Below are positions 14,030-50,349 of a stretch of 64,000 nt of DNA, in pieces (within the stretch, counting starts at the first letter, position 1; every line of letters starts with the position of its first letter). Source of the DNA: a virus; the IMG/VR virus record IMGVR_UViG_3300045988_099631, positions 32,001-96,000 of that record; one strand, 5' to 3'. The notes under the pieces were generated by a model. It was given only the letters and a program-made list of their open reading frames with translations. It did no database searches and was not told the origin of the DNA. A program made the translations under genes and the position numbers.

Positions 14030-14074
14030 ATTTTAGTCGTGGCTGCAAATGTTTTTTCCCATTCTTATGTCAAC
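14030..14074 (-). promoter_or_regulatory. class-A promoter: conserved 29-mer (14046-14074) plus TAAAAT 32 nt downstream of its TTGACA
   Basis: The minus strand reads GTTGACATAAGAATGGGAAAAAACATTTG. It is identical to the copies at 29941-29969 and 50305-50333. Confidence 0.55.
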
Positions 14075-14087
14075 CGTCAGGGGGGTA

Positions 14088-14116
14088 CAAAAAAAGAGGG
14101 TGTTTATCGCACCCTC
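14088..14116 (-). terminator. rho-independent terminator after the helicase-methylase gene
   Basis: GAGGGTG cgataaa CACCCTC followed by T7 on the minus strand. Confidence 0.65.
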
Positions 14117-14178
14117 AAACAACACTATGCTGTTATGAATTGAAATCAACCAGCGTGATTTGCAGCCTTATACTCAGT

Positions 14179-17100
14179 TCAGATTACATCGAACAGGCAC
14201 AGATTGTCGTTCTGCTGAGACTCGTCAAACTCCTTCAGGTAGCCGACCGCATCGCGGAAGTAGTCATTATTGAGTTCAATGGTGTAGCCATGTCTGCCGG
14301 CCTTGATGGCTTCCAGCGCAACCGTTCCAAGTCCACCAAACGGGTCAAGCACCAAATCCCCCGGATTACTGTACCGGTTGATAAGCCTGTCAACGATGTC
14401 CAGCTGGAGGGGACAATTTTTCACAACGCACCCTTCTGCTGTATAGCTGGCATCGTCAGCAACACGAATGCTCCACGTTTCAGCGGTTCCTGCATCATCC
14501 ACAGATTTCACGCGCTTCCATGCGCCATCGTCAAGAATGCTGCCGAAATGATGTGTGCCGTTCCTCCAGCTTAAAACCCATAGCTGTTTCTGATTGACTT
14601 CGCGGCCAGCAATGGTATGCTTCCCCGCACGTTTCCCTGCAAATACCGAGGGGATAACGCCCAACGCACGCTGCGCAACCATGGCCATTCCAAGCATCAA
14701 GGCTCTCGAAACGGAGCACGCCATCGTTGCATTTCCAGCCTTGCTGCCGTCTCCGGACAGGTATCCATCAAGAAGCGATTTTGCCAACTCTGGATTCAGG
14801 CAAATTCCCTCAATAGGAACTTGCTTGTTTTCTGCTCTACGTCCGCATTTACGCAGGATTCCTTTCATGTTTTCTGACATTGCGCTGGAACGCAATCTGT
14901 ATTGGATGGCATCTCGTACCGCGCAGGAGCCAAAATATCCTTGTGCCATTTCCTCAAACATAGCCGATTTGGCTTTTCCGACGCTGATAAACCAGTCTCC
15001 ATATGTCCCAACATGTCCATCTGCAAGGTAACGGCCAACAATCCACCATTCTTGAGCGGTTAGATTGCTATCCTCGCAGGCAGGAAGTTTCAGGTTGACC
15101 CATCCGCCAGCTGTATCTTTTGCCTCGGTCCATTCTGGTTCTGTCTTAGGCATATAGTCCTTGCTGCGGATGTAATTATTCTTTCTCGTCCAGAGTTTGT
15201 GATTGGGTGTGGTAATCAGATTTGCCACGCCTTGAGCCTTGGTCTGAACAACAGGGTTCACACCGGTGCAGCGCTTTGCGATAACCGGTTTCCAGTTTCC
15301 CGTATGGGTCAGTACCATATCTCCAATTGAAATATCTTCAATTGGCTTATATCCATCCCTGGTCAATACGAGGCTCCCCTTTGCCAAACAAACATGGTTC
15401 TCTTTTCTGCGCTGGCTCTGCGTTGTATTGAGCGTCCGCATTCGGTTGATATCGTCCCATACCTGATCTGTCCAGCTTCCGGGCGCAACTACCATGAACG
15501 TGGCTGGCAGATGCCCGTCCTTGTCAAGCTCTTTCGCCAGTTTTACATGCTCGTCATAGCTGTAAACGGAATCACGGCTGTATTTCCTATAAATTGCTTG
15601 CAACTTTCCCGTGTCGGTATGCAGCAGTTCGTCTTTCGTAATCAGCCGATTTCCGGAACTGCGCCAGAACCCGTGTGCGTCGATCTGCCATTGAGCGCGT
15701 GTGTATTCGTCCTTCGTCTTGGATACGCGCTCATCCGCATATGCTTTGGAGCGGTCGGTTGGAAGCTTCCGGAATAGCAAGATGTACTCCGGGCAGCCGA
15801 CGCCCATTTTTGTCCCGTCCTTGCACTGCTCAGACCATCCGAGCCGGTACGTCTGGTTGTTCTCTCGAACGACGTCCGTAACGACCGTAATCATGCCGAA
15901 ATATGCAAATCCATGCTCCATATAGTGCTTAATGCACATAGCATGAAATGGTTCCATCGTCGGCATACCAGTCCCTGTCGCATTGCCGAAAAGAACACGG
16001 TCTTTCACATGGCAGCAGAATACACGTCCTGGTTTCAGAATTCTTAGAAGGTTCGGCGTCAGATAGTCCATCTGCTCAAAGAACTTTTCCGTATCCTCGT
16101 TGTGTCCGAAATCGTTATAGCTCGGCGTATATTCGTAATGATTGGAAAACGGGATGGACGTAACGATCAGATCTGTGCTGTTGTCTGCCATTTTCGCCGT
16201 TTCCTCGCAGCAGTCGTTGTTGACCGCGATCCAGTTCTTTCCTCTGATCTCCATTCTCTCAACTCCTATGCTTCTGGCCATTTCCTGCTTCATGCGGTCG
16301 CCGGAAAGGCCGTATTTTTTTACGATTTCCCGCATCTGCTCCTGCATATAGTCATGCTGCTTCCATTTTTTCTGCAAAACGTCCCAAATCGGGATCTCTG
16401 CCTCCGTATAGATGATGTCCACAATGACCTTCTCCGTCTGCAAGAAGCGGTAGCAGCGGTGGATCGCCTGAATGAAGTCGTTGAATTCATAGTCAATCCC
16501 GACGAAGATCATTCTGTGGCAATGCCTCTGGAAATTGCAGCCCTGACCAGAAAGCTCTTTCTTCGTAGCGAAGATTCGGATTTTTCCGTCGGAGAAATCA
16601 ATGACGCGCCGTTCGCGCTCGTCATAGTCCATTGTTCCGTAGATCTCTACGGCCTCTGGTATCGCGCGGTGTATCTCATGTCGTTCCGCTTCGAGGTCAT
16701 GCCAGAGGATAAAGCTTGCCTCCGGATCGCTGTCAACGATCTCCTTCGCCATCTGTACGCGTGCAGTAATTGTCTCGCGCTTTTCCCGCGATGCCTCCTG
16801 AAGGTTCGTGGCAGAATCGTTCATCATCTTCACTTGACCATCCCGGTCCGTGATCTTTCCGAATTCGTCGTGAACAACATGCGTTCTAACTTCGAGTCCA
16901 GGAAGTTCATATCCCTCGTCAGAATATCCGAGGTCTGACGGTTTTCCAAGGAACAGCGCCCACGAGCTGACCCACAGCCAGAATTCTTCTTCACGGTGGG
17001 GATAAAGGGTCAGGTTGTTGGCCTTTGTGCTGTCCCGCTTGAAGAACCGTGTAAGGGCCTGTCCGGTGTCCATGACTTCGAGATATCCTGCATAGTGAAT

Positions 17101-17655
17101 GATCTCCTTATACCTGTTCGGAGCCGGTGTGGCCGTTGCGACCATCTTATATTTGACACCCTTGAACTTCTGAAGGAACGTCTGATAGGTCTTGCTTCCG
17201 AATGAGCGAAGTACCGATGCTTCGTCAAGGCTCGTCGCCGCGAAGTACGCCGGGTCGATATCCCCGTCCCGGACACGCTCATAGTTGGTAAGCATGATCT
17301 CCGCTCCGGCGTTCTCGCGTACCTCCTGCATCGTCCGTACATAAACCGGTTCTTCGTATCCCAGAATATTCACGGCGTCCCGTTTGAACTCCTGCCGCAC
17401 GCCGAGTGGCAGCACAATCAACGCTGGCCTTCCTTCATGTTTCGCGGCATGATGGCAGAACTCCAGTTCCTGTACAGTTTTACCTAATCCGAAACTCTCG
17501 AAGAGAGCTCTTCTGCCGCCGCGCAGCGCCCAACGTACCGCATCCCTCTGATGCGGCTTCAGCGCCAGATTGATATCTTCCTCTGGAACGGAAAAGCCGC
17601 TCACCGGAGCCGTCTCGATTTTTGATTTCAGAAATTCCAAGTATTTGCTGTTCAT
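14179..17655 (-). CDS. SNF2-type helicase / N6- or N4-DNA methyltransferase fusion, interrupted by an intein
   Basis: Helicase motifs GLGKT and SLDEAS. Methylase motif IV-like DLIVTSIPFS and motif I DPFGGLGT. 1158 aa including a 325-aa insertion. Confidence 0.8.
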   Translation of the reverse strand: MNSKYLEFLKSKIETAPVSGFSVPEEDINLALKPHQRDAVRWALRGGRRALFESFGLGKTVQELEFCHHAAKHEGRPALIVLPLGVRQEFKRDAVNILGYEEPVYVRTMQEVRENAGAEIMLTNYERVRDGDIDPAYFAATSLDEASVLRSFGSKTYQTFLQKFKGVKYKMVATATPAPNRYKEIIHYAGYLEVMDTGQALTRFFKRDSTKANNLTLYPHREEEFWLWVSSWALFLGKPSDLGYSDEGYELPGLEVRTHVVHDEFGKITDRDGQVKMMNDSATNLQEASREKRETITARVQMAKEIVDSDPEASFILWHDLEAERHEIHRAIPEAVEIYGTMDYDERERRVIDFSDGKIRIFATKKELSGQGCNFQRHCHRMIFVGIDYEFNDFIQAIHRCYRFLQTEKVIVDIIYTEAEIPIWDVLQKKWKQHDYMQEQMREIVKKYGLSGDRMKQEMARSIGVERMEIRGKNWIAVNNDCCEETAKMADNSTDLIVTSIPFSNHYEYTPSYNDFGHNEDTEKFFEQMDYLTPNLLRILKPGRVFCCHVKDRVLFGNATGTGMPTMEPFHAMCIKHYMEHGFAYFGMITVVTDVVRENNQTYRLGWSEQCKDGTKMGVGCPEYILLFRKLPTDRSKAYADERVSKTKDEYTRAQWQIDAHGFWRSSGNRLITKDELLHTDTGKLQAIYRKYSRDSVYSYDEHVKLAKELDKDGHLPATFMVVAPGSWTDQVWDDINRMRTLNTTQSQRRKENHVCLAKGSLVLTRDGYKPIEDISIGDMVLTHTGNWKPVIAKRCTGVNPVVQTKAQGVANLITTPNHKLWTRKNNYIRSKDYMPKTEPEWTEAKDTAGGWVNLKLPACEDSNLTAQEWWIVGRYLADGHVGTYGDWFISVGKAKSAMFEEMAQGYFGSCAVRDAIQYRLRSSAMSENMKGILRKCGRRAENKQVPIEGICLNPELAKSLLDGYLSGDGSKAGNATMACSVSRALMLGMAMVAQRALGVIPSVFAGKRAGKHTIAGREVNQKQLWVLSWRNGTHHFGSILDDGAWKRVKSVDDAGTAETWSIRVADDASYTAEGCVVKNCPLQLDIVDRLINRYSNPGDLVLDPFGGLGTVALEAIKAGRHGYTIELNNDYFRDAVGYLKEFDESQQNDNLCLFDVI
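14416..15390 (-). other. intein (325 aa) with LAGLIDADG homing-endonuclease domain
   Basis: Starts with CLAKGSLVLTRDG (block A). Also has TPNHKLWT (block B), WWIVGRYLADGHV and LLDGYLSGDGS (two LAGLIDADG motifs). Ends in GCVVKN followed by Cys+1. Removing it joins ENHV to CPLQLDIVDRLI just upstream of DPFGGLGT. Confidence 0.8.
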
Positions 17656-17663
17656 CTTATCTC

Positions 17664-18479
17664 CTATACAAACACAGTATCATTCAAGACCTGCGCATTG
17701 TCCGTGATTTTAACTTTCATATCGTCCGTAAGCGTGATAATGACTTCTGCCTTGGACGCTCCAAACGGAAGGAATCCCGATCTATACTCTTTACAGACCA
17801 TCCGTTTTCCGTCTTCCATTGTGAACTTATCCCCGCTTGAATCCTTGTACACGCAGTCTGGATTGCACGTTGCGAGTTTTGCGTATCTTCCGATAAATGT
17901 CGGGGACATCTCTGCATACTTCGGGTACTCTCTCACGAAGCGTTCATATTCCAATGGAAACAGTCTTTTGAATTGGTGCAGGAAATTCGGTACGGTTTCA
18001 TCCGCATATCTCGTGATAATATCTCCGCACATATTTCGTGGGTTATAGCCAAGTACGTTGTCCAAATTGTCCGGTGTCAGCATTGGTCTGTCCACTAGTA
18101 AATGTTGATTTGTGAATATCGCCGTTGCTGCGTTCAGTCGTCTTCCGTCCAATTTGAGGTCAACGTAAGGAAGATTCAGATACGCCATATCTCCAATGCG
18201 AATTACATACCAATAGGATGGGTATCTGAGTTTACGATATTCTGGCGAATGCTGCACTGCGTCTGTCACAGTGTCATAGCGTTTGCTCTGTTTTGTGCCT
18301 CCATCCACTTTTTCAACTCTGCCAAGTTCGCACCTGCGGTTAAACGGTATTGTAACGTTCAGGCATTTCCCCTCGTGGTATGCGGAGCATTCCTGCGCGT
18401 GATCGCAGCAAATGTATTCTGCCCGAAGCCGGTTATTTCGTTTTCCTTCTCCGTATAAAGCAACGTTTATGAGCGGCAT
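17664..18479 (-). CDS. hypothetical protein
   Basis: 271-aa ORF with a Cys-rich N-terminus. Confidence 0.5.
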   Translation of the reverse strand: MPLINVALYGEGKRNNRLRAEYICCDHAQECSAYHEGKCLNVTIPFNRRCELGRVEKVDGGTKQSKRYDTVTDAVQHSPEYRKLRYPSYWYVIRIGDMAYLNLPYVDLKLDGRRLNAATAIFTNQHLLVDRPMLTPDNLDNVLGYNPRNMCGDIITRYADETVPNFLHQFKRLFPLEYERFVREYPKYAEMSPTFIGRYAKLATCNPDCVYKDSSGDKFTMEDGKRMVCKEYRSGFLPFGASKAEVIITLTDDMKVKITDNAQVLNDTVFV

Positions 18480-18737
18480 TTATTGTCCTCCTTTCCCAAA
18501 AGAGCAGAACCCATCTTCCGGCATATTAAGGCCGGTCGCGTCACGAAAGCCGCACCTAACATATGTCCCACACCACGAAATTTCTGCCCAGCGGCCATCA
18601 CAGTCCCTGCAGCGTGTAACCTGTACTGCGTCCACTGCCGGCAGTCGGCTGATCTCAGCAAATGCCGCAGCATAGTCTCCGGATGTCCGGCGCACGATTT
18701 CGAGCGCGTCTTCCTTGTAAATCAGCTGCTTGTCCAT
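18480..18737 (-). CDS. small protein of the P-x-VDA / Cys-cluster paralogue family
   Basis: LPAVDAVQVTRCRDCDGRW... Confidence 0.5.
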   Translation of the reverse strand: MDKQLIYKEDALEIVRRTSGDYAAAFAEISRLPAVDAVQVTRCRDCDGRWAEISWCGTYVRCGFRDATGLNMPEDGFCSFGKGGQ

Positions 18738-20189: not shown

Positions 20190-20233
20190 TTGTTGTCCTC
20201 CTTTCATGCTTCCGCGTGCGAAACGCAAGCCTT

Positions 20234-22847: not shown

Positions 22848-22850
22848 CTG

Positions 22851-24258: not shown

Positions 24259-24605
24259 AGCGCGTTCTCCAATCCTTTCCACTCAAATTTCGGGTGCGAT
24301 AAGCAGTTTGAGCAAGGGCAAACTCTGTATTGATAACAGTCATCGCAGGTGTTCTCGGTACACCGAGCATCGAAACAATACGAATCATTTTTGCAGATCT
24401 CACACAGTTTTCTGGAATTTGCAGCTTCGAGCAAAGCATTCCTTTCCTTTTCCAGCCGCTCAATCAGATCTGCGGCACCAACCATCATGTCGCCCATACA
24501 ATCCTCGCTATCCTCGCTGTCAAACAATGGGCATTCCGCACAAGTTTGTGCGTCTGTTCTGCGGGAGCATATCCGCAGAGCCCGTATAATTTCCCTGTCT
24601 GTCAT
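24255..24605 (-). CDS. hypothetical Cys-rich protein (N-terminus paralogous to 23875-24258)
   Basis: MTDREIIRALRICS... Confidence 0.45.
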   Translation of the reverse strand: MTDREIIRALRICSRRTDAQTCAECPLFDSEDSEDCMGDMMVGAADLIERLEKERNALLEAANSRKLCEICKNDSYCFDARCTENTCDDCYQYRVCPCSNCLSHPKFEWKGLENAL

Positions 24606-25471
24606 ATATCCTCCATTCCTTCAAAAACCATTTGCCCCGGCAAAACGCCGTCCTCCATCCACCAGTGCATCACTTCCTTACCTGTTTGCCAGTCGCAAGG
24701 CAAGCCTCTCTTTTGCCGTTCCGCAAGCATCCTGTCAAACGCCCGGACATACGCCGCTTTGATCTTTGGGTAACGCGCAAACTGCACCTTCCGGTGCTTG
24801 CCTGCCATCGGGCAGCCGATACAACCCACGCGTTCAAAACCGCAGGCGTAAAGTGGATTCATCGAGATCTTTTCTGCCGTGCAGTAATCCCAGATGTCAG
24901 CATCCTGCCAGTCAATGATTGGGTTTACCGTCCGCGTCCCCTTGAGCTGGCAGTTTTCCATCATCATTCGGTTCTCGTCGTTGTCATTCATAAGCGTCAG
25001 CCGCTTGTCCTTGCTCTTATGCAGCGCTTCCATAACGCCGCGAGATTTCCGCTTTTGCGATTCGGCCCAGCGAACGCCGGTCGCAATCCACCTCCCGCGG
25101 CCGCTGGTCTCTTTGAGCGCCGCGCAGCAGTAGCGCGCCAGGCGTGTCGGCGGCATGAGTTTGCGCGGGATTAGGTTCCACATCGTCACGTTTCCGCCGT
25201 CCGGCGTCCGGTGCGTATCGATTGTGCATTTTACGCCAGCCAGCTCCAAGCGGCGGAAGGTGTCCCGCACATGCCAGACAGTCTCCGGCGCGTCCGCCGT
25301 GGTCAGCGAGTGCAAAACCTCATACTGGATACCGGCTTTTCCCGCCAGATGCAAAAGCACGTCCGAGTCCTTGCCGCCCGAGTAGGTAATCACAAGCGGC
25401 TGCTTGTACAGGCGCAAGCTCATCTCCGAGGCCATTTTCAGCCGCTCAATCGCGGTTTGTTCTAAGTCCAT
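24602..25471 (-). CDS. PAPS-reductase-family (PP-loop) protein
   Basis: VITYSGGKDSDVLLHL PP-loop and a C-terminal Cys cluster CGFERVGCIGCP. Confidence 0.8.
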   Translation of the reverse strand: MDLEQTAIERLKMASEMSLRLYKQPLVITYSGGKDSDVLLHLAGKAGIQYEVLHSLTTADAPETVWHVRDTFRRLELAGVKCTIDTHRTPDGGNVTMWNLIPRKLMPPTRLARYCCAALKETSGRGRWIATGVRWAESQKRKSRGVMEALHKSKDKRLTLMNDNDENRMMMENCQLKGTRTVNPIIDWQDADIWDYCTAEKISMNPLYACGFERVGCIGCPMAGKHRKVQFARYPKIKAAYVRAFDRMLAERQKRGLPCDWQTGKEVMHWWMEDGVLPGQMVFEGMEDI

Positions 25472-29509: not shown

Positions 29510-29899
29510 TCACCGCCGCCTTTCCTTTGAGAAAATCTCAAATGATGTCAGCGAATCCCCTGCCTTGATCTGCCCTTTGCAGAATATCCGCAGATACCCG
29601 CACGGCAGACAGTCTATCGACCACGCCGGCAGCGCCATCTTCCGATAATCACACGGTCCCATCCACTCTCCATGTCCGCCATGTCCTTCCAAGTCCAACG
29701 TCTCCGATACTCCAGACAGCCTCACGACCGGCTCAGGTCCCACACATCCTACAAAGTCCATCCGCCCCCATGTTTCACGGCTCAAACTGTCCTCCATTGG
29801 AATGATGACCAGACTATCAAACGCAGGTTCTTTACTGTCAAAACGTTCCCGTTCCGGAACTTTCTCGAAATCTTCCTTGCGCATTTTTCGAATGTCCAT
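29510..29899 (-). CDS. hypothetical protein, first gene after a 29-mer promoter element
   Basis: Start moved to MDIRKMRK (RBS GAGGGGG), because the predicted -10 lies downstream of the track start at 29935. Confidence 0.4.
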   Translation of the reverse strand: MDIRKMRKEDFEKVPERERFDSKEPAFDSLVIIPMEDSLSRETWGRMDFVGCVGPEPVVRLSGVSETLDLEGHGGHGEWMGPCDYRKMALPAWSIDCLPCGYLRIFCKGQIKAGDSLTSFEIFSKERRR

Positions 29900-29924: not shown

Positions 29925-29969
29925 ATCATACTCATGCCAACAAATGTTTTTTCCCATTCTTATGTCAAC
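29925..29969 (-). promoter_or_regulatory. class-A promoter: conserved 29-mer (29941-29969) plus TATGAT 32 nt downstream of its TTGACA
   Basis: The 29-mer is identical to the copies at 14046-14074 and 50305-50333. Confidence 0.55.
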
Positions 29970-31013
29970 TCACCCATGTACGCACACCATCCCGGCGCAC
30001 GCCTCCCATCAGCCGATGCACACTTGATTCATACCTATGCAATATGTGCCCCATGTCCGTAGGACACCCGATATGTTGCCGTAAGGCAACCGCGCAAATT
30101 TTATTTTTGGGGTATGCCCCATATCCGTTCCAAAATTTTAACTCAGGTTTGGGAAATACCCCCTCCCCCATGTCTATTCAGTCAAAAAGAAAGCGCCGAC
30201 CATAGCCGACGTCGCAAAAGCATATTCAGGCGTATATGGAATCCAGTTTATCCAACCGGTCGCACCATTCCACACTTGCATCATGAATGCGGCGATCATC
30301 CATTCAACCACTACGTCCGTTTTTGGTGTCGTTTCGCGGAACATGGTCAGAGGGGGAAGTGCTTAGTGCGTTCTCCGATTTTGGGTGCGTCCTGGTCTTG
30401 TAAAATGGGGGGTGTTCTTTCATTCTGACGTGATTCTTTCATTTTTGGGCGTATGTCGTTTACATTATGCCCTATAAAGTAAACGACATACCATCATTTT
30501 TGCAAGATTTCCGTCAGAATCATGCAGAAGTCCGAACTTTTTCCGGATTTTTGCATGACACGCCCAGTTTGCTGCGGCTTGCCGTTGGTGTGCAATGGGG
30601 CGCGGTTGGAAATTTTGCCGCTTGTTTCCGCCTGAACAGAGCGGAGCCGGGAACACTTTCCCCGCGCGGCTGTTGTGGTGTGCTGTAAGTAGCTGTTGGC
30701 TGGTGTTCGCTTGGGTTGCGGCGCGTTGCCTTCTAGTTGGCAGGGCTGGGCGGCAGGGGCTGGCGGTGAGTTGAACGTTGGTGCGCGGGTATAAAGAATA
30801 TAGTGTAATACTCGCCCGCGCAATCAACACACGCGCACGCACGCGACGCGCACGCATACGCGCATACGCGCGCGATATAATATGGAGTGACTGCGGGAGT
30901 GTGTGCGGGGCGTGTAGGGGCTGCGCTGGGCTGTTGGGTCGGTGTTGGGGCGGTGTTGGGGCTTGTGGTGGCGCTGGTGGTCGGCTAGGGGCTGCGGGGG
31001 CCTTGGCGGGCGG

Positions 31014-31736
31014 TTAAGCCTGCGCAAGGTAGCGGGCGCGTATCTTATCGATTCGGCGTTGAACGGCGCTTTTGCTCATGCCAAGGGCGGCGGCAATGGT
31101 GCGGACGGTGTGCCCGTCGGCAAGTGCTCGGATGATTGCGCGGTCGGTGCTGTCAGTGGCTGCGGCCTCGATGGCGGCGCGGATAATGGCGGCATCTTCG
31201 GGGCTGCTGCTGACGGGGGCGGCTGTGACGCTTGGCAGGTAGTCGAGCGGTGTTTGTGTGCAGTCGTCGCCGTCCGCGTCGGCGGCGCTGGTGAGTTGGC
31301 AGCAGTTGGACGCGTGCCGGTACTCGGCGCGGCTGATGACGTGCGTTGCCTGGGTGCAGGCTGCAAAGAGTATGTGCGTAAGGGTGTGCGGCTCGTCGCT
31401 TTGCTCGTTGCGCGTGAGGGCAGGCGCGACGCGGGGCCATGCCTCGGCTGCGACGGTCTGCGCGTCGTCCGGGGTGCGTATCCATTCTGTATCGATTCCG
31501 CGTCCGGTGGCCTCGGCGCGGTGCTTGACGGTCCACGCCATGCGGATCAGCGCGGTATACTGTTCCTCGCCGCTCATGTTGTCCCACACGCGGCGGGCTG
31601 CTGTGGCGGCTTTGGCGGTTCTGTGCGCCTCTTTCAGGCAGATGGCAAACTGGGCGCGGCTGCGGGTCTCGGGGTACTCTGCGACGGTGGCGCGGTACAG
31701 GCTCCATGCCTGCCGCATGATCTGGGCTTTACTCAT
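31014..31736 (-). CDS. sigma-70 region-4-like HTH protein (candidate phage sigma or transcription factor)
   Basis: The C-terminus (DRAIIRALADGHTVRTIAAALGMSKSAVQRRIDKIRARYL) resembles sigma region 4.2. RBS AAAGGAG. Lies in the GC-rich island. Confidence 0.45.
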   Translation of the reverse strand: MSKAQIMRQAWSLYRATVAEYPETRSRAQFAICLKEAHRTAKAATAARRVWDNMSGEEQYTALIRMAWTVKHRAEATGRGIDTEWIRTPDDAQTVAAEAWPRVAPALTRNEQSDEPHTLTHILFAACTQATHVISRAEYRHASNCCQLTSAADADGDDCTQTPLDYLPSVTAAPVSSSPEDAAIIRAAIEAAATDSTDRAIIRALADGHTVRTIAAALGMSKSAVQRRIDKIRARYLAQA

Positions 31737-31833: not shown

Positions 31834-32013
31834 TCAGAAGCTCGGCTGTAGCTTGATCTCCCAACGGCCGCAAATGTCGCCTGCGGCGTTTTTCTCGGCC
31901 TTTTTCAGGGCCTTTTCGATTGCTGCCGCTTTGTTGGGTGCGCTCACGGTAAATGCTTGGTGCTTGCCGCCATTATCCACGCAGCGGAAAGCGAACTTGT
32001 AGTTGCTGCTCAT
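31834..32013 (-). CDS. hypothetical protein (59 aa)
   Basis: Trimmed to MSSNYKFAFRCVDNGG with a GGAGGTGAG RBS. Confidence 0.4.
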   Translation of the reverse strand: MSSNYKFAFRCVDNGGKHQAFTVSAPNKAAAIEKALKKAEKNAAGDICGRWEIKLQPSF

Positions 32014-33093: not shown

Positions 33094-33160
33094 TGTTGTA
33101 TCCTTTCCGGCCTTCGGCCTATGCCCTGCGGGGCGTTCGTTGTTTCATTTGATGGCTTTA

Positions 33161-33246
33161 TTATATATAGTTATTACATATATTTCAATAGGCATATTGT
33201 CTAAATATTAACTAGATTTTTGTGTAAATTATATAGTTATTACATA
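33161..33246. repeat. two direct copies of TTATATAGTTATTACATA in the AT-rich divergent control region
   Basis: Copies at about 33162-33180 and 33229-33246. TAGATTT recurs three times nearby. Confidence 0.5.
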
Positions 33247-35860: not shown

Positions 35861-35960
35861 ACAGCAAACAGTGAATATACATCCGCGCATATACAAAAAG
35901 CCGCCCCATTTGGGACGGCTTGCTTTTTACCTTTGTGGCACATATTTTATGTGATTTTCT

Positions 35961-40879: not shown

Positions 40880-41015
40880 AGATTGCAAGCAGGTCGCAAG
40901 TTGGTCGCAACACTCCATTCAACTATGGGAAAATAGCACGCGAAACGCACGAAAACCGCACGCAAGTTGTAAGCAAGTTATACGCAAGTTGTAAGCAAGT
41001 TATACGCAAGTTACC
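40880..41015. repeat. GCAAGTT iteron array (five contiguous 11-nt units at 40961-41015, plus looser copies at 40880-40915)
   Basis: CGCAAGTTGTA AGCAAGTTATA CGCAAGTTGTA AGCAAGTTATA CGCAAGTTACC. The 22-nt unit is repeated exactly. Confidence 0.7.
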
Positions 41016-41091: not shown

Positions 41092-41119
41092 TTGACACAT
41101 TCAGTTTTTGCGGTATAAT
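41092..41119 (+). promoter_or_regulatory. consensus sigma-A promoter (TTGACA-16-TATAAT) for an antisense RNA
   Basis: Hexamers at 41092-41097 and 41114-41119. There is no ORF downstream on the plus strand. Confidence 0.55.
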
Positions 41120-42257: not shown

Positions 42258-42269
42258 ACATGAAAGAGA

Positions 42270-42413: not shown

Positions 42414-42427
42414 AAAATGTAGGGGCA

Positions 42428-43768
42428 TTATTTTAAAAAAGCGTATAGGATTTCAGCGTGGATATTCTCCCGCCTAACCTTTGCGTGAATTGAACTAGGC
42501 TGTATTTCCACTATTTCAGCATGATATGTCATGCCTGCGTCCATCTTCGGTGCGTAGACAGCCGCCCAATCTCCAGAAATATGACCAACTGGGAATCCAC
42601 AGGAGTTTTTCACTAATATTGCATTTTTGTCGTATTTGTTTTCGGGTTCTCGTTCAAGAATAAGCGAGTCACCGACAGTGAGATTTTTCAAGGTGTCTTT
42701 ACTGGCGCAGAATTTCATTCCTACAATACTCACAGTTTCCACAACCAGTTTCGCCTTTTCATTTCCTTCCCATCCGGCTATTTGTCCAGAGTATTTAGAT
42801 TGGATTGTATAGTACATATCGCTGTCCAGAGGTAGCACCGTTAGCTCCGGGTGATTTTTTTGCAATAACATAACCTTTTTGCGGCTTTCGTTTCCCCAAT
42901 AGCCTTTTACTTCTACAATAACGCTATTCGGCAAGAAAAAATCCGGTGTATAGCATAGTCCTTCCCCAAGATCAAACATTTCTCGTTCATATTCGTATGG
43001 AATATGTTTTGACCTCAAGAGCCTAGCAATATTAGCTTCCCACGAACTGCGCAGCGCTTGATCGAGGTCTATCCGAAAGCCTATGTTATATTTCTGAGAT
43101 TTATAGTCATCATAGCTTGTAGTTACAATCCGGATTTTACCGCGTTCATCTATGACCTCGATGCACGGAACCCCATTCCTGTGTAGAATTTCTTCTACAG
43201 GCTTGTTGTGATTACTATGCTGCACAAACCATCGTGCGAAGCAATCATCCTCTTTTCGGAGAGTATATGACCAATCAGGTGTATTTGGAACCTGAGCAAT
43301 TTCTACATTTTCTCCGCAGTATTTCTTACAAATAGCAGTCACCGTCTGTACATAGTTGCTTGGAAAACATATGTAGTTATATGTTTTCGTCAAATCACAG
43401 ATATAAGGTATTGAATCTATACTTTCCCAAGTGCGGTCCCCCCATAATTTTCTTTTTACGGATACAGAAAATTCATCATGTTCGTGCAGGTAGTTACGGA
43501 AAATGTCTCTATACTCGGCAAAAAACCAATCATCGTTTTCGTTGCGACGACGTATATCGACATACCGAATAATCGATATTCCGTCTTCGCTTCGTATGAC
43601 ATTTAGAAACCTAGCGTTATTTCTATGGAGCAAATCAAGATATCTTGCAAGCAATTCGTTTGGAACTTGGTCTGTATGTTCCCATATAAAATACTGCTCA
43701 GTTTTTACACCATATTCAGATTCAATGCACTGCGCCAGCATTTCTCCAACGTGCGTTTCCTTTTCCAT
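42428..43768 (-). CDS. PD-(D/E)xK nuclease plus C-terminal HIRAN-domain protein (candidate defence moron)
   Basis: SWEANIARLL...IPYEYE...YTPDFFLPNSVIVEVKGYW, which is a D...E-x-K nuclease core. The C-terminus (IVGMKF...LTVGDSLILEREPENKYDKNAILVKN...PVGHISGDWAAVYAPKMDAG) is a HIRAN pattern. Opposite strand and visibly AT-richer than its neighbours. Confidence 0.6.
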   Translation of the reverse strand: MEKETHVGEMLAQCIESEYGVKTEQYFIWEHTDQVPNELLARYLDLLHRNNARFLNVIRSEDGISIIRYVDIRRRNENDDWFFAEYRDIFRNYLHEHDEFSVSVKRKLWGDRTWESIDSIPYICDLTKTYNYICFPSNYVQTVTAICKKYCGENVEIAQVPNTPDWSYTLRKEDDCFARWFVQHSNHNKPVEEILHRNGVPCIEVIDERGKIRIVTTSYDDYKSQKYNIGFRIDLDQALRSSWEANIARLLRSKHIPYEYEREMFDLGEGLCYTPDFFLPNSVIVEVKGYWGNESRKKVMLLQKNHPELTVLPLDSDMYYTIQSKYSGQIAGWEGNEKAKLVVETVSIVGMKFCASKDTLKNLTVGDSLILEREPENKYDKNAILVKNSCGFPVGHISGDWAAVYAPKMDAGMTYHAEIVEIQPSSIHAKVRRENIHAEILYAFLK

Positions 43769-43835
43769 AAAATTTCCTCCGTTCAATGTTCAAACAATTT
43801 TTATCAGCGATAGAATTCGTTCGTATTCTTCGAGC

Positions 43836-43863
43836 GGGACAAATCACATATTTCGTGTAGATA
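43836..43863 (+). promoter_or_regulatory. class-B promoter 12 (GGGACA-16-TAGATA)
   Basis: Followed by a second, sigma-A-like promoter TTGACA-17-TATCAT at 43895-43923. Confidence 0.5.
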
Positions 43864-43946
43864 GAAAAATAGAGAGATTTTCTTGAATCGTGTATTGACA
43901 TTATCGTGCAATCGTGTTATCATGTTTGCGTAAGGAGGTGTGATAA

Positions 43947-44090
43947 GTGGCAGAAAAAAATATCGGCATCAAGGTTGACGCAGAACTGTACAAGAAGATC
44001 AAAATCAAGATTGCGCAAGAGGGAATCACTCTAAAAGAATACATTCTGAAATTGATTCAAAAAGACCTTGAACTCGAATCCGATAAATAA
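43947..44090 (+). CDS. small ribbon-helix-helix protein (47 aa, GTG start, below the track cutoff)
   Basis: Hand-found VAEKNIGIKVDAELYKKIKIKIAQEGITLKEYILKLIQKDL. RBS AAGGAGGTG. Confidence 0.5.
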   Translation: MAEKNIGIKVDAELYKKIKIKIAQEGITLKEYILKLIQKDLELESDK

Positions 44091-44264
44091 AAACACCCCC
44101 TTCTCTGCGGCTAGTTTGCCGACCGGCGCAAAGAAGGGAGCTGCCCGAAAATACCCGCATGACATGGGGATACTTTACGGTTTTTTCATTATACCGTGAT
44201 TACATTCCCCTGTCAATCCAAATTTGATAGGGGGATTTTTATATTTCCCGGAAAGGATTACACG

Positions 44265-45038: not shown

Positions 45039-45052
45039 GAGGAGAAAATACC

Positions 45053-45217: not shown

Positions 45218-45367
45218 ACGAAGAAGTAGATTCTCGGTGGATTCACAAACATCAATCATCAGAAAAATTCAGGGGGAAAATCGAAATGACAAAGAAACAG
45301 CCCACAAGCCCCTGCCTTTAGGCATGGGGTAAAGGGCTGCAAGTCTACTTATTGTTGGAGATGAAAC

Positions 45368-46471
45368 ATGGAATATTCCTACAAATTTAGGCTGTGCCCA
45401 AATGCGGCTCAGAGAAACTTAATACAGCGCACTTTCGGCTGTGCTCGATTTGTGTATAACCACTTTCTTTCTGAACGCATTGCGCAGTATCGAGAAACTG
45501 GGAAATCTCCTACACGATTTCAGCAGGATAAGGAACTCACTGTACTCAAGCAGAAACTCGGATGGCTGCAAGAGCCAGATAAATGCGCCTTGCAAAATGC
45601 TGTGAGGAATTTAGACGCCGCATATAAGAACTTTTTTCGCCGAGTAAAGAACGGTGAGAAGCCCGGTTTTCCAAAGTTCAAAAGCAAGCGCAACCACAGA
45701 CAGAGCTATAAGTCAAATGGTAGCATCAGAGTTTTTGACAATGCAGTTCAACTGCCGAAACTGGGAAAAGTCAAATGCCGTATCAGTCGAAAGGTTGAGG
45801 GTAGAATCCTCTCTGCCACAGTATCACAGAATCCAAGCGGCAAATATTTCGTATCACTCTGCTGCACTGACGTTGAAATCGAGCCATTGCCGAAGACCGG
45901 TGCTGTGATCGGCGTTGATATGGGACTGAAAGCGTTCGCAATCACGTCCGAAGGGATGGAATACCAGAACCAGCGCTATTTAGCCAAGAACCAGAAGAAA
46001 CTTGCCAGATTGCAACGGCAACTCTCCCGAAAATCAAAGGGGAGTAACCGGCGCGAAAAAGCGAGGATTCAGGTGGCACGGCTGCATGAGCATATCACAA
46101 ACCAGCGCAGCGACATGATGCACAAGCTGTCAACACAGCTCATTCGTGAGAATGATGTGATCTGCATCGAAGACTTAGAACCGAAGAACATGGTCAAGAA
46201 CCATAATCTAGCGAAGTCTATCAACGACGCAGCGTGGGGCGAGTTCAGGCGGCAGCTGGAGTACAAGGCCGCGTGGTACGGGAAGAAAGTCATACAGATT
46301 GACCGGTTCTTCCCTTCTAGCCAGTTATGTTCCTGCTGCGGGTATCGGAATACCGATACGAAGAATCTGGCCGTGCGTGAATGGACGTGCCCTGAATGTG
46401 GGATACACCATGACCGGGATGTAAATGCCGCAAAGAACATTTTGAGTGAGGGCTTGCGCCTGTTGGCCTAG
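45368..46471 (+). CDS. tnpB: TnpB RNA-guided endonuclease (OrfB_IS605 plus zinc ribbon)
   Basis: N-terminus [13 protein letters not shown]. RuvC residues in [14 protein letters not shown] and [11 protein letters not shown]. Zinc finger CSCCGY...CPECG. Confidence 0.85.
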
Positions 46472-46596
46472 TCTAAACATACGGTAGGGCGGGACACGCC
46501 CGAACCTATACGCTCGTGGAGACTATGTAAGACGCAACTACGGCGCGGCAGTCGGCGAAACGAGAATCCCCCGGATTTAGCCGTGGGGAGTGTCAC
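46330..46596 (+). ncRNA. expected omega/reRNA of TnpB (3' end of tnpB to the right end); the extent is a guess
   Basis: By analogy with known TnpB systems. The structured GC-rich tail 46472-46596 ends at the inferred right end. Confidence 0.35.
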
Positions 46597-46618
46597 AAAC
46601 ACAGATATTCGGTAGATA
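46592..46618 (+). promoter_or_regulatory. class-B promoter 13 with its -35 replaced by the IS right end (GTCACA-15-TAGATA)
   Basis: Joining the left flank ...ATGAC to AAACACAG... would restore GACAAA-N-CGGTAGATA. Confidence 0.35.
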
Positions 46619-46668
46619 GCAAACTGTAGAAATACGCATAAATAGAAAGAGAAAGGACGTAAAATTCA

Positions 46669-46905
46669 ATGAAAAGCAAAAAATCAACCGATCTGGTCTA
46701 TGTGCCGGAACTCACCCCAGAAGATGTTTTCAGCCACTTGGTATGTCACCACGCAGACGTTGTGCGCGCCAGAAACGCGCAGCGGGCGTACAAACGGTAT
46801 TTGGAGCGCAAGCGTCGCTGTGTTGCTTCCATCGTGATTATCGTATCCTCGCTTGCCGCAGCCGCTACGCTACTCATCACAAGCGGTGTGCTTGCGATGG
46901 TTTGA
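46669..46905 (+). CDS. membrane-anchored hypothetical protein
   Basis: 78 aa with a C-terminal TM helix. Confidence 0.45.
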   Translation: MKSKKSTDLVYVPELTPEDVFSHLVCHHADVVRARNAQRAYKRYLERKRRCVASIVIIVSSLAAAATLLITSGVLAMV

Positions 46906-46919
46906 ATGGAGGTGCGCGC

Positions 46920-47087
46920 GTGTACAAGTTGTATGACAGCTATCCGGACTCCCCTGCCCTTGTCGGTACGTTTGACAGCGTTGACGAGGCGCGGGAGGCC
47001 GCGAAGAAAATGGATGAGGCAACTGGCGGAAAATTCTTTCCGAGGCTCGTCAAAGATGGAAAGGTCATTCAAGATTGGGGGTACTAA
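46920..47087 (+). CDS. hypothetical protein (GTG start)
   Basis: VYKLYDSYPDSPALVGTFDSVDEAREAAKKMD with a GGAGGTG RBS. Confidence 0.35.
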   Translation: MYKLYDSYPDSPALVGTFDSVDEAREAAKKMDEATGGKFFPRLVKDGKVIQDWGY

Positions 47088-47090
47088 AAC

Positions 47091-47336
47091 ATGACATACG
47101 CAACGCTTTTGACCATCGCTTCTCTGCTTGAGAAGGAGAAAAACATCCGGGAAAAGGAATGCGAGCTCCTGCGTGAGAAATTGAATTCTGCGCGTGACAC
47201 AGCGGACTTTTCTCCGGAAGATAGCGAACTTTCTCGTGAAGTAGAGTTTACCAGAGCCTTATACGAAAAGTCCAGAGAAGGGCTTCTCAAACATGAACGC
47301 GCTTGTGAAGACTTCTTTGAGCATGATTTCCGGTAA
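47091..47336 (+). CDS. hypothetical coiled-coil protein
   Basis: 81-aa ORF. Confidence 0.45.
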   Translation: MTYATLLTIASLLEKEKNIREKECELLREKLNSARDTADFSPEDSELSREVEFTRALYEKSREGLLKHERACEDFFEHDFR

Positions 47337-47353
47337 GAAATTCATTTGGAAGT

Positions 47354-47380
47354 GGGACAAATCCATTTTTTCGGTAGAAA
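47354..47380 (+). promoter_or_regulatory. class-B promoter 14 (GGGACA-15-TAGAAA)
   Basis: Motif read upstream of the ATG at 47422. Confidence 0.5.
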
Positions 47381-47421
47381 CATAGGTGTAAGACAAAACA
47401 CCATACAGGAGGCCAAAAACA

Positions 47422-47601
47422 ATGAAGAAAGTCAAGGAATTATGGAACGAGTTCGGCGATGTGCCGATGAACCCAGAAACACAGTGCATCGAGGAAGCAT
47501 GGCACGGGTTCCCGGCCGGAACAAATCGGGAGGAAATTTGGCACTGGTTCGAGGAAACGTTCGACGTTCGCGTCGCTGATCTGATGTACGGAGGTATCTG
47601 A
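47422..47601 (+). CDS. hypothetical protein (59 aa, below the track cutoff)
   Basis: Hand-found MKKVKELWNEFGDVPMNPETQCIEEAWHGF with an AGGAGG RBS. Confidence 0.4.
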   Translation: MKKVKELWNEFGDVPMNPETQCIEEAWHGFPAGTNREEIWHWFEETFDVRVADLMYGGI

Positions 47602-47602
47602 A

Positions 47603-48193
47603 ATGGGACAGCGTTCACAGATCTATGTCCGCGCGTCCGGGCAGCTCATCGTCGCAAACTACTATCAATGGAACTATGCCGAGCGAATGATTTCGCGTGC
47701 TAGATACGGTATTGAGTACATCGATTCGGTCAAGGACTACAGCAACTGGATTTTTCTCCGCGACGTGAACGTCGAACATTTGCGCCGCATCCTGGACGTA
47801 AACTTCGACCTCAAGGACTACCAGATTTCGATCAAGATCATCGAAGAATGGAAGGACGTTTTTCCAGACAAGCCTTTCAATGATGTTGTGTTTGACTGGC
47901 AGGACAACAACGACGGCCAGCTGTTCATCGACTTCACGAAAGACGGAAAGATTTCTTATGCGTTCCGGAAAACGGAAGACATGACGTGCGAAAGCCCGAT
48001 GTCTGCTGCCGAATACATGGAATGGGATCGTCGGAACTGGCTGGATTGCGAGTCCATGACGAAGGCTGAGAAAGCCACCTGCCGCCGCAACATTGCAGCT
48101 ATCGATAAGATGGCAAGACTTATGACCGCAGAGGAATTGAAAGAGTTCGTCCATCATGACTACGGGTACAAATCCGTTCAGGAGGCAGACTGA
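47603..48193 (+). CDS. hypothetical protein
   Basis: 196-aa ORF. Confidence 0.5.
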   Translation: MGQRSQIYVRASGQLIVANYYQWNYAERMISRARYGIEYIDSVKDYSNWIFLRDVNVEHLRRILDVNFDLKDYQISIKIIEEWKDVFPDKPFNDVVFDWQDNNDGQLFIDFTKDGKISYAFRKTEDMTCESPMSAAEYMEWDRRNWLDCESMTKAEKATCRRNIAAIDKMARLMTAEELKEFVHHDYGYKSVQEAD

Positions 48194-48194
48194 C

Positions 48195-48467
48195 ATGACC
48201 TTTAGAGATTTCTGTACAGGCTTCCGCGATTACTGGCCGAACTTCGTTGCAAAGCACTGGAACTTCTCACAGTGCAGAAACGGATACAGTGCCGGGTACA
48301 CGCCGAAATATCCAGAAAAGACAGCAGCGGATTTCGACGTATTTTATAACACTTGCGACGGCTCATGGACACTCTACGCCGAAACAGCGTGCGTCCCGAT
48401 TATAAGAAGGTTTGAATCCTTCGACAAACTTGCGAAGCAGGCTTGTGAACCCGCAAAATGCCCGTAA
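48195..48467 (+). CDS. hypothetical protein
   Basis: Trimmed to MTFRDFCTGF. Confidence 0.4.
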   Translation: MTFRDFCTGFRDYWPNFVAKHWNFSQCRNGYSAGYTPKYPEKTAADFDVFYNTCDGSWTLYAETACVPIIRRFESFDKLAKQACEPAKCP

Positions 48468-48504
48468 GTTCCCGCAAGATACCCGCAAAAAGCGTAGATT
48501 TTCC

Positions 48505-48531
48505 GGGACAAAACCAGAATCCCGGTAGAAC
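48505..48531 (+). promoter_or_regulatory. class-B promoter 15 (GGGACA-15-TAGAAC)
   Basis: Motif read upstream of the ATG at 48584. Confidence 0.5.
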
Positions 48532-48583
48532 AGTAAATGTAAGCAATCACACAAACAACAATTATTTTATGGAGGTAAAAACA

Positions 48584-49297
48584 ATGGCAAAGGCAACTAA
48601 GGAAGCACAGGAGACCAAGGCGATCAGACGGTACATCAAGCTCACGTTCATTGAGCCGGTGCTGGGCACCTGGCCGAGTAACGAGAATGTGGCGCGTGAC
48701 TTCATCGCGTCCAAGTCTCCGGACGCAAACACAATCGAAGATGAGGTCGCAGCGATTGGTGCGGAAGCTGTGGCTGATAAGGCAATGACGGTATTCCCCC
48801 GTGTCGATGGCAAGCCCGTATTCTGGGATTACCAGATTAAAGGATTTTTCAAAGACACTTGCAGCGCCCTCGCCCGTGCCAAGTACACAAAGTCCAGCGG
48901 CCTGAAAGCATTCAAGAAGGTCATCGACGGTATGATCTTCCCCTTCCCCCGCGCAATTTCCATCAACGTCAACGGAGAAATCGGCGAATGCCAGCGGCCG
49001 CTCCGTGCGCAGACTGCGCAGGGTGAGCGTGTGAGCCTCGCAAACTCCGAGGAAATCCCGGCTGGAAGCACGATTCAGTTCGGCGTAACACTCGCAGACC
49101 CGGCGCACGAAGCACTGCTGATGGAGTGGCTGGACAATGGGTTCTTCCGTGGTCTCGGTCAGTGGCGTAACTCTGGCAAGGGCCGATTCGTCTACAAGAT
49201 GCTCGACGAGGAAGGCAACAACCTCGGCGGCACAGCAGAGAAATTCGGTTACATGATGCAGGAGGCGAACTTCTTCCCGGAGGAAAAGGCGGGCTGA
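48584..49297 (+). CDS. hypothetical protein with a RAMP-like glycine-rich loop
   Basis: 237 aa. Has an N-terminal beta-like YIKLTFIEPVLGT and a C-terminal FFRGLGQWRNSGKGRF. Family not recognised. Confidence 0.5.
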   Translation: MAKATKEAQETKAIRRYIKLTFIEPVLGTWPSNENVARDFIASKSPDANTIEDEVAAIGAEAVADKAMTVFPRVDGKPVFWDYQIKGFFKDTCSALARAKYTKSSGLKAFKKVIDGMIFPFPRAISINVNGEIGECQRPLRAQTAQGERVSLANSEEIPAGSTIQFGVTLADPAHEALLMEWLDNGFFRGLGQWRNSGKGRFVYKMLDEEGNNLGGTAEKFGYMMQEANFFPEEKAG

Positions 49298-49339
49298 TAG
49301 GCCCGCCGAACGGGGCGATGGAAACGCGTCGAGCGGCAT

Positions 49340-50300
49340 GGCCTAGATTGGCATCGCAAAGGAGCAGCAATGCTCAGCAATGCTCAGCACAGCAAAGGAA
49401 AAGCGGAGTGAGGCAGCGCCGGGCGGAGTGGGGCCAGGCATAGCAGCGGAGAGGTGGAGCGCCGCACAGTCAAGAACTGCATAGGGCAGGCTGAGTTCTG
49501 TTTTGGAACCAGAAGAACAGCAGAGGCTTTGCGGGGCGATGCGTATCTCGGCAACGCAATGGCTTAGTGGGGTGTCGCAATGCGCAGCGGAGGCGAGGCA
49601 AAGTACGGTCTAGCAAGGTATAGCAAAGGAATGGCAAAGTAAAGAGTCGCCGCGCACAGAAACGCAAGGGCGATGTGGGGGTTAGCGACGGGAAGCAAAG
49701 GACTTGCTCAGCCTCGCACTGCCCGGCAATGGAACAGCAAAGAAATGCGCTGGTTAGCAACGGAAACGCGAAGCGCTGTCTTGCGTTGAAATGGCGTTGA
49801 AATGGCGATGGAATTGCACGGATTCGCATGGCACAGCAATGGAAGTGTACCGACCAGATAATCATAGCGACGGTGAGGATAAGAACGGCTTAGAAACGCA
49901 TCGGAAGTGTATCGCGCAGTCAAGCAGAGCGGCGGATTAGTTGAGCAACGGGTAGCCATGGAACAGCGGATCGGAGTTTAGTAGAGCTATGGAAAGGCAA
50001 GGTGAGGTCTGGCCAGGGAATGCAATGGCAAAGCGCGGTGACGGCATAGCGTGGTTTTGATTAGCAACGGCTGGGCGGCGATACGGATTGAGTCGTTACG
50101 CGGTGAAACGGCATGGCAAGGAATGGAAGTGTTTGGAGTTGTGCAGCATTGGAGTGGTGCAGGTTGGCTACGTCTAGCAGTGAAATGCAAAGGAAAAGCA
50201 ATGTTCTGAGGGGCCGTGAAAAGGATATGCGTTGCGAATCAAAGCGGAGCAAAGCAAAGGATATGCGCAGCGCGGAAATGCGTGGCAAAGCAAAGGAGAG
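49340..50300 (+). repeat. ORF-free purine-rich tract with 14 same-strand copies of GCAA[A/T/C]GG
   Basis: Copies counted by eye at 49356, 49392, 49556, 49623, 49695, 49726, 49757, 49836, 49945, 50022, 50064, 50187, 50254 and 50290. AGCGG occurs 6 times. Confidence 0.7.
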
Positions 50301-50304
50301 GCAG

Positions 50305-50349
50305 GTTGACATAAGAATGGGAAAAAACATTTGCCCCTTGGAGTATAAT
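50305..50349 (+). promoter_or_regulatory. class-A promoter: conserved 29-mer (50305-50333) plus TATAAT 32 nt downstream of its TTGACA
   Basis: GTTGACATAAGAATGGGAAAAAACATTTG, then TATAAT at 50344-50349, an AAGGAGG RBS and the ATG at 50373. Confidence 0.55.

Follow-up and report, generated by a model that had tools for sequence, protein, structure and literature searches.

What is a 29-nt sequence doing in three identical copies, each at the start of an operon, in one phage genome? The stretch in which it occurs, positions 32,001 to 96,000 of IMG/VR virus record IMGVR_UViG_3300045988_099631 (64,000 nt; hereafter the window), is part of a 112-kb human-gut metagenome contig, and locus L247 is 100% identical to window positions 40373-61461. 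The phage belongs to a clade of abundant uncultured human-gut phages of approximately 105-112 kb that is represented by hundreds of contigs. No close annotated phage or plasmid relative was found, and the nearest isolates were distant phages of Faecalibacterium, Dorea, and Clostridium. We give a probability of about 0.68 to the reading, drawn from the sequence of the sites, that the 29-mer GTTGACATAAGAATGGGAAAAAACATTTG would be the upstream recognition region of a phage-specific class of promoters that lack a -35 hexamer, depend on a dedicated factor, and have been homogenised among their copies.

The 29-mer occurs in three exact copies in the window, each oriented with the operon that it precedes. 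At all three, a TAnnAT hexamer lies 32 nt past TTGACA, which corresponds to the 29-mer followed by 10 nt, and a purine-rich ribosome-binding site (RBS) and an ATG come downstream of the hexamer. The sites are composed of the following features.

14046..14074, minus strand: element copy 1, exact match, with the distal box TTGACATAAGAATG at 14060-14073 and the proximal box AAAAAACATTTG at 14046-14057
14030..14035, minus strand: -10 hexamer TAAAAT of copy 1, 10 nt past the element, with the RBS AGGAGGG and the ATG at 14008
14089..14116, minus strand: intrinsic terminator just upstream of copy 1, ending the copy 2 operon (GAGGGTG-cgataaa-CACCCTC, with 7 nt between the arms, followed by T7; -16.2 kcal/mol, z = -3.09)
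29941..29969, minus strand: element copy 2, exact match, with the proximal box at 29941-29952
29925..29930, minus strand: -10 hexamer TATGAT of copy 2, with the ATG at 29899
50305..50333, plus strand: element copy 3, exact match, with the proximal box at 50322-50333
50344..50349, plus strand: -10 hexamer TATAAT of copy 3, with the RBS AAGGAGG and the ATG at 50373

None of 100 shuffled windows gave a match to the 29-mer at three or fewer mismatches, and no degenerate copy with one to nine mismatches was present in the window. The next-best matches had 10-11 mismatches (eight versus approximately 1.7 expected from the shuffles), and not one of these lay at an operon start. The initial annotation had reported the three 29/29 matches, the hexamers 32 nt after TTGACA with an RBS and start codon behind them, and a strong terminator ahead of copy 1, all of which were recovered by reading the sites; it had also called the flanks unrelated, and this was borne out for the upstream flanks. 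The leaders of the sites were unstructured, with folding z-scores near 0, and in a covariance-model scan of the window with Rfam only three tRNAs reached the gathering score, with no structured RNA family matched at the element sites. A reading as an RNA element was rejected on these two grounds.

The sites did not fit the canonical sigma-A promoter. No TTGACA-like -35 hexamer stood at 16-18 bp from the -10; the sequence at 17 bp, which falls inside the 29-mer, is GAAAAA, as had been noted beforehand, and agrees with the consensus at 2 of 6 positions, while TTGACA is 32 bp off. The hexamers carry A at position 2 and T at position 6 at all three copies and at all sites of the family described below. 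The TGn of an extended -10 is absent from copies 1-3, where the corresponding nucleotides are GAC, GAG, and GAG. By inspection, none of the consensus sequences for sigma-54, sigma-H/E/F/G/K, sigma-B, IHF, or the Bacteroidetes -33/-7 promoter was found with correct spacing; for sigma-54 (TGGCAC-N5-TTGCW), the GG-to-G spacing was off by one, and copy 2 has GT and not GC after TTT. What was found is a conserved box in place of the -35 at a fixed spacing to a host-type -10, as in class II and MotA-type promoters. Because the phage also possesses canonical TTGACA-17-TATAAT promoters (perfect or near-perfect, at 44216, 41092, 41394, 43895, and 33188) and a switch with palindromic operators, the 29-mer sites form a separate promoter class. 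The earlier proposal of a non-standard promoter class was upheld in this respect, based on the missing -35 at 17 bp, the conserved geometry, and the canonical promoters elsewhere. By established promoter mechanics, the absent -35 would therefore call for an auxiliary factor bound at the missing contact, at approximately -51 to -23.

Two further identities were sought outside the promoter field. An exact match of either element variant was found in none of 185,579 species-representative genomes, and the 29-mer was accordingly rejected as a mimic of a clustered regularly interspaced short palindromic repeat (CRISPR) and as part of a widespread prophage. A search of the literature for the motif yielded nothing beyond coincidental matches to primers.

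Is the element kept in related phages? The initial annotation had made its reading depend on this point, and the answer was positive. The comparison used viral contigs that encode homologues, at 94% to 36% protein identity, of the genes that follow copy 3 and copy 2. The element, the 10-nt spacer (N10), and TAnnnT were retained in relatives down to approximately 72-80% protein identity, with T1, A2, and T6 of the -10 hexamer present at every family site. Across the family sites, the invariant part is AAAAAACATTTG-N10-TAnnnT, in which the sequence of N10 varies; the 5' TTGACATAA..ATG part is auxiliary, being lost at some sites and moved by 1 nt at others. Close relatives kept the element with a GG-to-TA change (GAATGTAAAAAAACATTTG), and copy 2 is conserved as this TA variant in more than 20 relatives, while the homologue of copy 1 in relatives reads GTTTACATAA(G/T)(A/C)ATGTAAAAAAACATTTG. 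Versions 1 nt longer, with the 5' half shifted by +1 nt, occur in contig 120248 and the L020 group. At two sites, that of L116 and the one on the integrase side in L020, the 5' TTGACATAA part is replaced and ATGnnnAAAAAACATTTG-N10-TAnnnT is retained, and the L080 and L026 groups have a short form with ACATAA 11 nt nearer to C(A/G)TTT(G/T)-N10-TAnnnT. No comparable site was seen at a distant homologue in a metagenome-assembled genome (L253), and a short-pattern scan of viral contigs was swamped by chance matches. The part that matters most is probably the 3' half, AAAAAACATTTG, at approximately -34 to -23, and TTGACA appears dispensable at some sites.

The percentage of variable columns among the orthologues of copy 3 and of copy 2 gave a footprint for each segment. 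In the upstream 200 nt, 64% and 36% of the columns were variable for copies 3 and 2, respectively, decreasing to 7% and 17% in the element, rising to 30% and 40% in the N10 spacer, and reaching 0% at both copies in the -10 hexamer, with 0% and 3% in the leader. In the alignments, this profile marks a promoter composed of two parts with a gap of fixed length between them.

Full-length relatives contain a fourth site, GTAGACATAACAATGTAAAAAAACATTTG-N10-TATGAT, in the same orientation and approximately 55 nt upstream of a gene for a Rha-type antirepressor, preceded by a small ribbon-helix-helix (RHH) gene and a hairpin. The window differs at this locus, where another segment brings a canonical TTGACA-17-TATCAT promoter. 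In place of the segment with the RHH gene and the fourth site of the relatives, it has the segment at 42428-44264, with perfect divergent canonical promoters, a HIRAN/endonuclease I gene, and an RHH gene of 47 aa. The RHH genes differ between the window, 075216, and 102837, in a layout ahead of the Rha antirepressor that resembles arc-ant.

How might such a site work? Numbered from the start that we infer approximately 7 nt past the hexamer, the layout would comprise a sigma-A-type -10 hexamer TAnnnT at -12 to -7, a variable 10-nt spacer, the invariant proximal box AAAAAACATTTG at -34 to -23 in the usual place of the -35, and an auxiliary A/T-rich distal box, (T)TGACATAAnnATG, at approximately -50 to -37. 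Host RNA polymerase would read the -10, and a phage-encoded DNA-binding protein on the proximal box, or on both boxes, would replace the missing -35 contact through activation of the class II or sigma-appropriation type, a phage sigma factor being less likely in that role. The operons behind the three sites in the window are as follows.

14.0 kb to about 6.9 kb, minus strand: copy 1 operon, with HTH_39, DUF3310, Hydrolase_2, SSB, Phage_rep_org_N (replisome organiser), and dUTPase genes
29.9 kb to 14.18 kb, minus strand: copy 2 operon, with many small genes, YopX, DUF6440, PAPS reductase-like, and DUF551 genes, and a gene for a 1158-aa SNF2 helicase/N6-N4 methyltransferase; terminator at its end
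50.4 kb to about 58.8 kb, plus strand: copy 3 operon, with a Xer-like recombinase gene, tRNA-Gly/Gln/Met, and MqsA-like, IHF/HU-like, PemK/MazF, and cysteine desulfurase-like genes

These would be delayed-early or middle operons. Copy 2 would serve the DNA modification genes and the helicase, copy 1 the SSB, replisome organiser, and dUTPase genes, copy 3 the Xer-like recombinase, the tRNAs, and the IHF-like protein, and the fourth site of the relatives the genes for the Rha antirepressor and a protein with the Spo0A effector domain (Spo0A_C). Canonical sigma-A promoters, of which at least one is controlled by a palindromic operator, would serve the immediate-early (and lysogeny) genes.

Such an arrangement has parallels. 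The middle promoters of phage T4, which depend on a MotA box and AsiA, likewise have a host-type TAnnnT -10, no -35, and a phage box at a fixed short distance, and they drive genes of replication and nucleotide metabolism after early genes transcribed from host promoters. Unlike the T4 case, the phage analysed here is temperate with a Gram-positive spore former as host, the sites have an extra distal box, the MotA box TTTGCTTTA is unrelated to AAAAAACATTTG, and Pfam mapping of window 0-61.5 kb revealed neither a MotA nor an AsiA homologue. In class II promoters, such as those with a pho box bound by PhoB or the PRE, PI, and PaQ promoters bound by lambda CII, the activator site replaces the -35, as here, and the lambda CII sites include the integrase promoter, which is comparable to the sites described here. 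Between the end of the pho box and the -10 lie 10 bp, which is the spacing of the present sites and is close to that of T4 MotA boxes. Unlike the PhoB and CII sites, the element has no clear direct repeat, only a weak ACATwwG repeat, and no response regulator or CII homologue was identified.

Which protein could bind the element? The main candidate activator that we infer is a helix-turn-helix (HTH) protein encoded close to copy 2.

31014..31736, minus strand: gene for the candidate trans-acting factor of 240 aa, the last gene of a short operon, approximately 1.05 kb upstream of copy 2
33160..33188, minus strand: canonical sigma-A-type promoter TTGAAA-17-TATAAT, which would drive the operon that ends in the 240-aa HTH gene

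The gene order around the 240-aa HTH gene is conserved in L250, L251, and L252. The gene was present, in synteny with the element, in every relative with a long or short form at the copy 2 position, whereas distant loci that lack the element gave no detection of it. An AlphaFold2 model of the protein comprises a helical N-domain, a disordered linker, and a four-helix C-domain, the latter being a sigma-4/KorA-like HTH according to Pfam, PHROGs, and Foldseek. Profile searches with the protein returned generic HTH similarity only. HTH_39 (encoded at 13585-13884), Rha, and the IHF-like protein (an IHF/HU-type protein is encoded at 55568-55843) are further candidate activators.

Could the 240-aa protein be an alternative sigma factor of the phage? 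The -35 would then be AAAAAC(ATTT), with the AAC motif typical of extracytoplasmic function (ECF) sigma factors 15 nt from the -10. An AAC motif approximately 15 nt from the -10 fits ECF promoter geometry, and the gene stands in an early operon beside the first element site. Weak Sigma70_r4_2 and Sigma70_ECF matches were obtained, and approximately the top 27 Foldseek matches of the full-length model belonged to the sigma-70 family, mostly ECF (E 0.02-1, probability up to 0.99). Against this, the N-domain modelled alone (pLDDT 92) gave no significant sigma-2 match, the best E value being 1.8 and sigma-2 fragments appearing at ranks 16 and 31 with a TM score of approximately 0.3. A permissive Pfam scan of 20 family members of the protein gave no Sigma70_r2 match (0 of 20) even at E <= 5, and the -10 has the housekeeping form TAnnnT, unlike that of ECF promoters. 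A region-4-like HTH is thus present with region 2 undetected, and an alternative sigma regulon is quite unlikely. The middle promoters recognised by SPO1 gp28 and the promoters of the phage 7-11 sigma factor (PMC4331800) resemble the present set in being nearly alike among themselves, distinct from those of the host, and switched by a protein from an early operon. They differ in that the -10 here is of the host sigma-A type and the candidate has no detectable sigma region 2. Because region 2 was found neither by fold nor by sequence, we call the 240-aa protein a candidate activator and not demonstrably a sigma factor; the part of the initial annotation that spoke of a sigma-like protein was not borne out, as only the C-terminal HTH resembles sigma region 4.

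Several points weigh against factor-dependent promoters as the explanation. Promoter activity and the start site are predictions from sequence, the trans-acting factor is represented by candidates only, and the main candidate lacks a detectable sigma region 2. The reading helix of this protein is the same in the long-form and short-form groups and does not co-vary with the form of the box. With three to four sites per genome, a statistical argument for a regulon is thin, and apart from the three sites the window shows no excess of the core motif by itself, a scan for CATTTG-N10-TAnnAT giving eight matches at no more than one mismatch versus 4.6 expected. Finally, a TGn extended -10 (TGT or TGG) is present at the fourth site and the L020 sites, the only such cases among the family sites, and the host holoenzyme alone might suffice at some of these.

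This last point leads to the alternative of an operator role for the element. The -10 and the A/T-rich upstream DNA would then suffice for recognition by the unaided host sigma-A holoenzyme, and a phage repressor bound to the element would silence the lytic operons in the lysogen or later in infection. The lysogenic part of this proposal has support from a prophage junction. The phage sequence of contig k141_178473 breaks off at the counterpart of window position 6.75-6.9 kb approximately (20.76-21.3 kb of L254), and genes for a SpoIVB-like peptidase S55, DegV, and TetR lie past the junction. Therefore, attP is placed beside the integrase gene at 5452-6582, the host is an endospore former, and the phage is temperate. 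The window encodes two tyrosine recombinases, at 5452-6582 and at 50373-51461, the latter being Xer-like with NCBIfam matches all below the cut-offs. The one at 5452-6582, which adjoins the prophage junction, is probably the true integrase.

The operator reading also draws on the overlap of the sites with the -35 region of lytic-type operons, on the TGn at some family sites, and on the asymmetry of the element, which is oriented with transcription. The stoperators of mycobacteriophage L5, the nearest analogue of such an operator, are likewise asymmetric and oriented with transcription. These gp71 sites, in another temperate phage, are near-identical repeats that contain TTGACA and overlap the -35; they differ in that the sites of L5 number approximately 30, measure 13 bp, and in many cases lie inside operons, whereas the three to four sites here are approximately 29 bp long, stand only at operon starts, and keep a fixed spacing to the -10. 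Unaided promoters without a -35 and, at copies 1-3, without TGn would moreover be weak, and a spacing held so strictly at 10 nt is seen more typically where an activator or sigma makes contact than at repressor sites. In addition, a conventional XRE/DicA-like repressor candidate with palindromic operators already exists at the switch and shows no match to the element. We regard an operator as an unlikely explanation.

The switch region itself, at 4583-4771, contains two identical palindromic operators, ATCACATAAAACATGTGAT, at 4691-4709 and 4720-4738 (29 bp apart), one of which occupies the spacer in the TTGAAA-17-TATAGT promoter that serves the YqaJ/RecT operon. The DicA/XRE-like gene of 133 aa (4772-5173) is divergent from this promoter. 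A weaker copy of the operator is found at 35937-35955, and the palindrome occurs nowhere else in the window. The elements gave no match to it at three or fewer mismatches, and the idea that the element is a split copy of the switch operator was dropped, as the two have only short words in common.

A further candidate regulator comes from the spore-forming host. Host phosphorylated Spo0A, or the receiver-less Spo0A_C protein of relatives, could bind 0A boxes over a misplaced -35 as at spoIIG. The spoIIG promoter has a TTGACA-like hexamer at a non-canonical distance from the -10, which the present sites recall, and the distal box GT[T/C/A][G/T]ACA is similar to TTCGACA, the 0A box in reverse complement. 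The host is an endospore former, judged by the SpoIVB-like gene adjoining the prophage, and close relatives (L001, L248) have an intact 119-aa receiver-less Spo0A_C gene (Pfam 80.5 bits; 1LQ1 at E 1e-21) in the operon behind the fourth site. Truncated spo0A genes have been documented in gut phages (PMC10294663). The window retains only a remnant of this gene.

45286..46594, plus strand: Spo0A_C gene remnant (RBS and ATGACAAAGA), its body replaced by an element of the TnpB/IS605 family

The recognition helix of Spo0A_C is conserved, which predicts the canonical box TGTCGAA. However, the element matches this box at only 4-6 of 7 positions, the best match inside it being TGTCAAC (5 of 7), and TGTCGAA is not enriched in the window (eight occurrences versus 11.6 expected) and absent from the element sites. 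The window and contig 063728 lost the gene to the TnpB element with their 29-mers still perfect, and conservation of the sites is highest in the proximal box, not in the distal box that resembles 0A. The resemblance to spoIIG-type promoters and to the control of phi29 thus comprises a TTGACA-like hexamer at an odd distance, a spore-forming host, and the effector-domain gene in relatives; unlike those systems, the element has no canonical 0A boxes, and the sites are intact in a phage from which the gene is absent. Binding by Spo0A is very improbable.

A copy of the TnpB element with 85% identity lies elsewhere in relative 075216 (L193 2789-4110). A guide or target relation between TnpB and the 29-mer was rejected, as the latter has no similarity to the insertion sequence (IS) region.

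Why are the copies identical? In the lineage of the window (the window, 102837, SAYO22_402, and k141_178473), copies 1-3 are identical and carry GG, and the fourth site, where it is present in this lineage, retains TA. The other lineage has TA at all sites, and its copy 1 differs in the 5' half (TTTACA...). The TA fourth site in the GG genomes 102837 and SAYO22_402 refuted the idea that GG or TA is a genome-wide specificity code. Since identical double changes appear at dispersed paralogous sites, homogenisation by gene conversion is indicated, and the phage encodes RecT and YqaJ. The 29/29 identity would thus reflect purifying selection on the boxes together with recent homogenisation in this lineage, and it does not show that every base is essential.

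The identity of the copies had also suggested a role in recombination to the initial annotation, with inversion of 29.9-50.3 kb or deletion of 14.0-29.9 kb by the adjacent tyrosine recombinase. Copies 1 and 2 are indeed direct repeats with copy 3 inverted relative to both, and copy 3 does abut the gene for the Xer-like recombinase, which lies downstream of it. However, when approximately 130 related loci were compared with the window by BLAST, no break was found at any 29-mer. All close relatives (>50 loci) were collinear through every copy, deletions in relatives ended at window 14416 and not at a 29-mer, and no inversion of 29.9-50.3 kb with junctions exactly in the 29-mers was seen. The 29-mer has no dyad or inverted-repeat core, conservation extends to the -10 at a fixed spacing, and in the L020 group the site ahead of the same recombinase gene lacks the 5' half. 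The functional integrase and attP are at approximately 5.4-6.9 kb. A recombination site is therefore extremely improbable, and this part of the initial annotation was abandoned. In distant relatives, homology to the window begins at the element (50301 or 50322), so the sites coincide with mosaic boundaries.

A bolder form of the promoter reading would combine these observations. Temperate phages that infect gut spore formers would have a transcription activator of an undescribed type, the candidate being the 240-aa protein with its new helical N-domain and sigma-4-like HTH. It would substitute for the -35 contact of host sigma-A as a Gram-positive analogue of sigma appropriation, and its sites would be kept identical by gene conversion and used as preferred crossover points in module exchange. 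We consider this combination doubtful as a whole.

Phage-specific factor-dependent promoters are a familiar kind of phage control signal, and they leave the concepts of phage transcription unchallenged. The easily recognised motif provides a handle for annotating operons and temporal classes in this gut phage clade, and the 29-mer can serve as bait for finding the cognate regulator. If factor dependence is true, promoter and factor would provide a compact orthogonal pair for the genetics of Clostridia. The sites also offer a clear case of concerted evolution of dispersed promoter copies in a phage genome.

Several minor features lie near the sites. A gene-free tract of approximately 1 kb (49340-50300) directly upstream of copy 3 is rich in G and A (G 36%, T 16.5%) and holds 11 of the 37 GCAAWGG motifs of the window, all on the plus strand and in loose arrays every 31-36 nt or so. 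It is poorly conserved among relatives and could represent an origin, an array of protein-binding sites, or a spacer. Another tract free of genes and of similar length (approximately 1 kb, 29970-31014), between the 240-aa HTH gene and copy 2, is unrelated to it in sequence and contains a hairpin with 18-bp arms at 30451-30491. The SNF2 helicase/methyltransferase of 1158 aa (14179-17655) gave a weak match to the intein-like Hint_2 family, and relatives show differing deletions or replacements that all end at window 14416 (14416|18980 in 102837, 14416|26030 in 091430). The PAPS reductase-like gene (24602-25471) and the cysteine desulfurase-like gene (56442-57542) resemble dndC and dndA, respectively, and this pair suggests a pathway of DNA modification. 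A tandem repeat of GCAAGTTATAA at 40960-41013 (4.7 copies; 2.4 copies of a 22-nt unit at 100% identity) is located between the canonical promoters at 41092 (plus strand) and 41394 (minus strand), and it may be a regulator-binding array near the gene for an Ltp-like lipoprotein.

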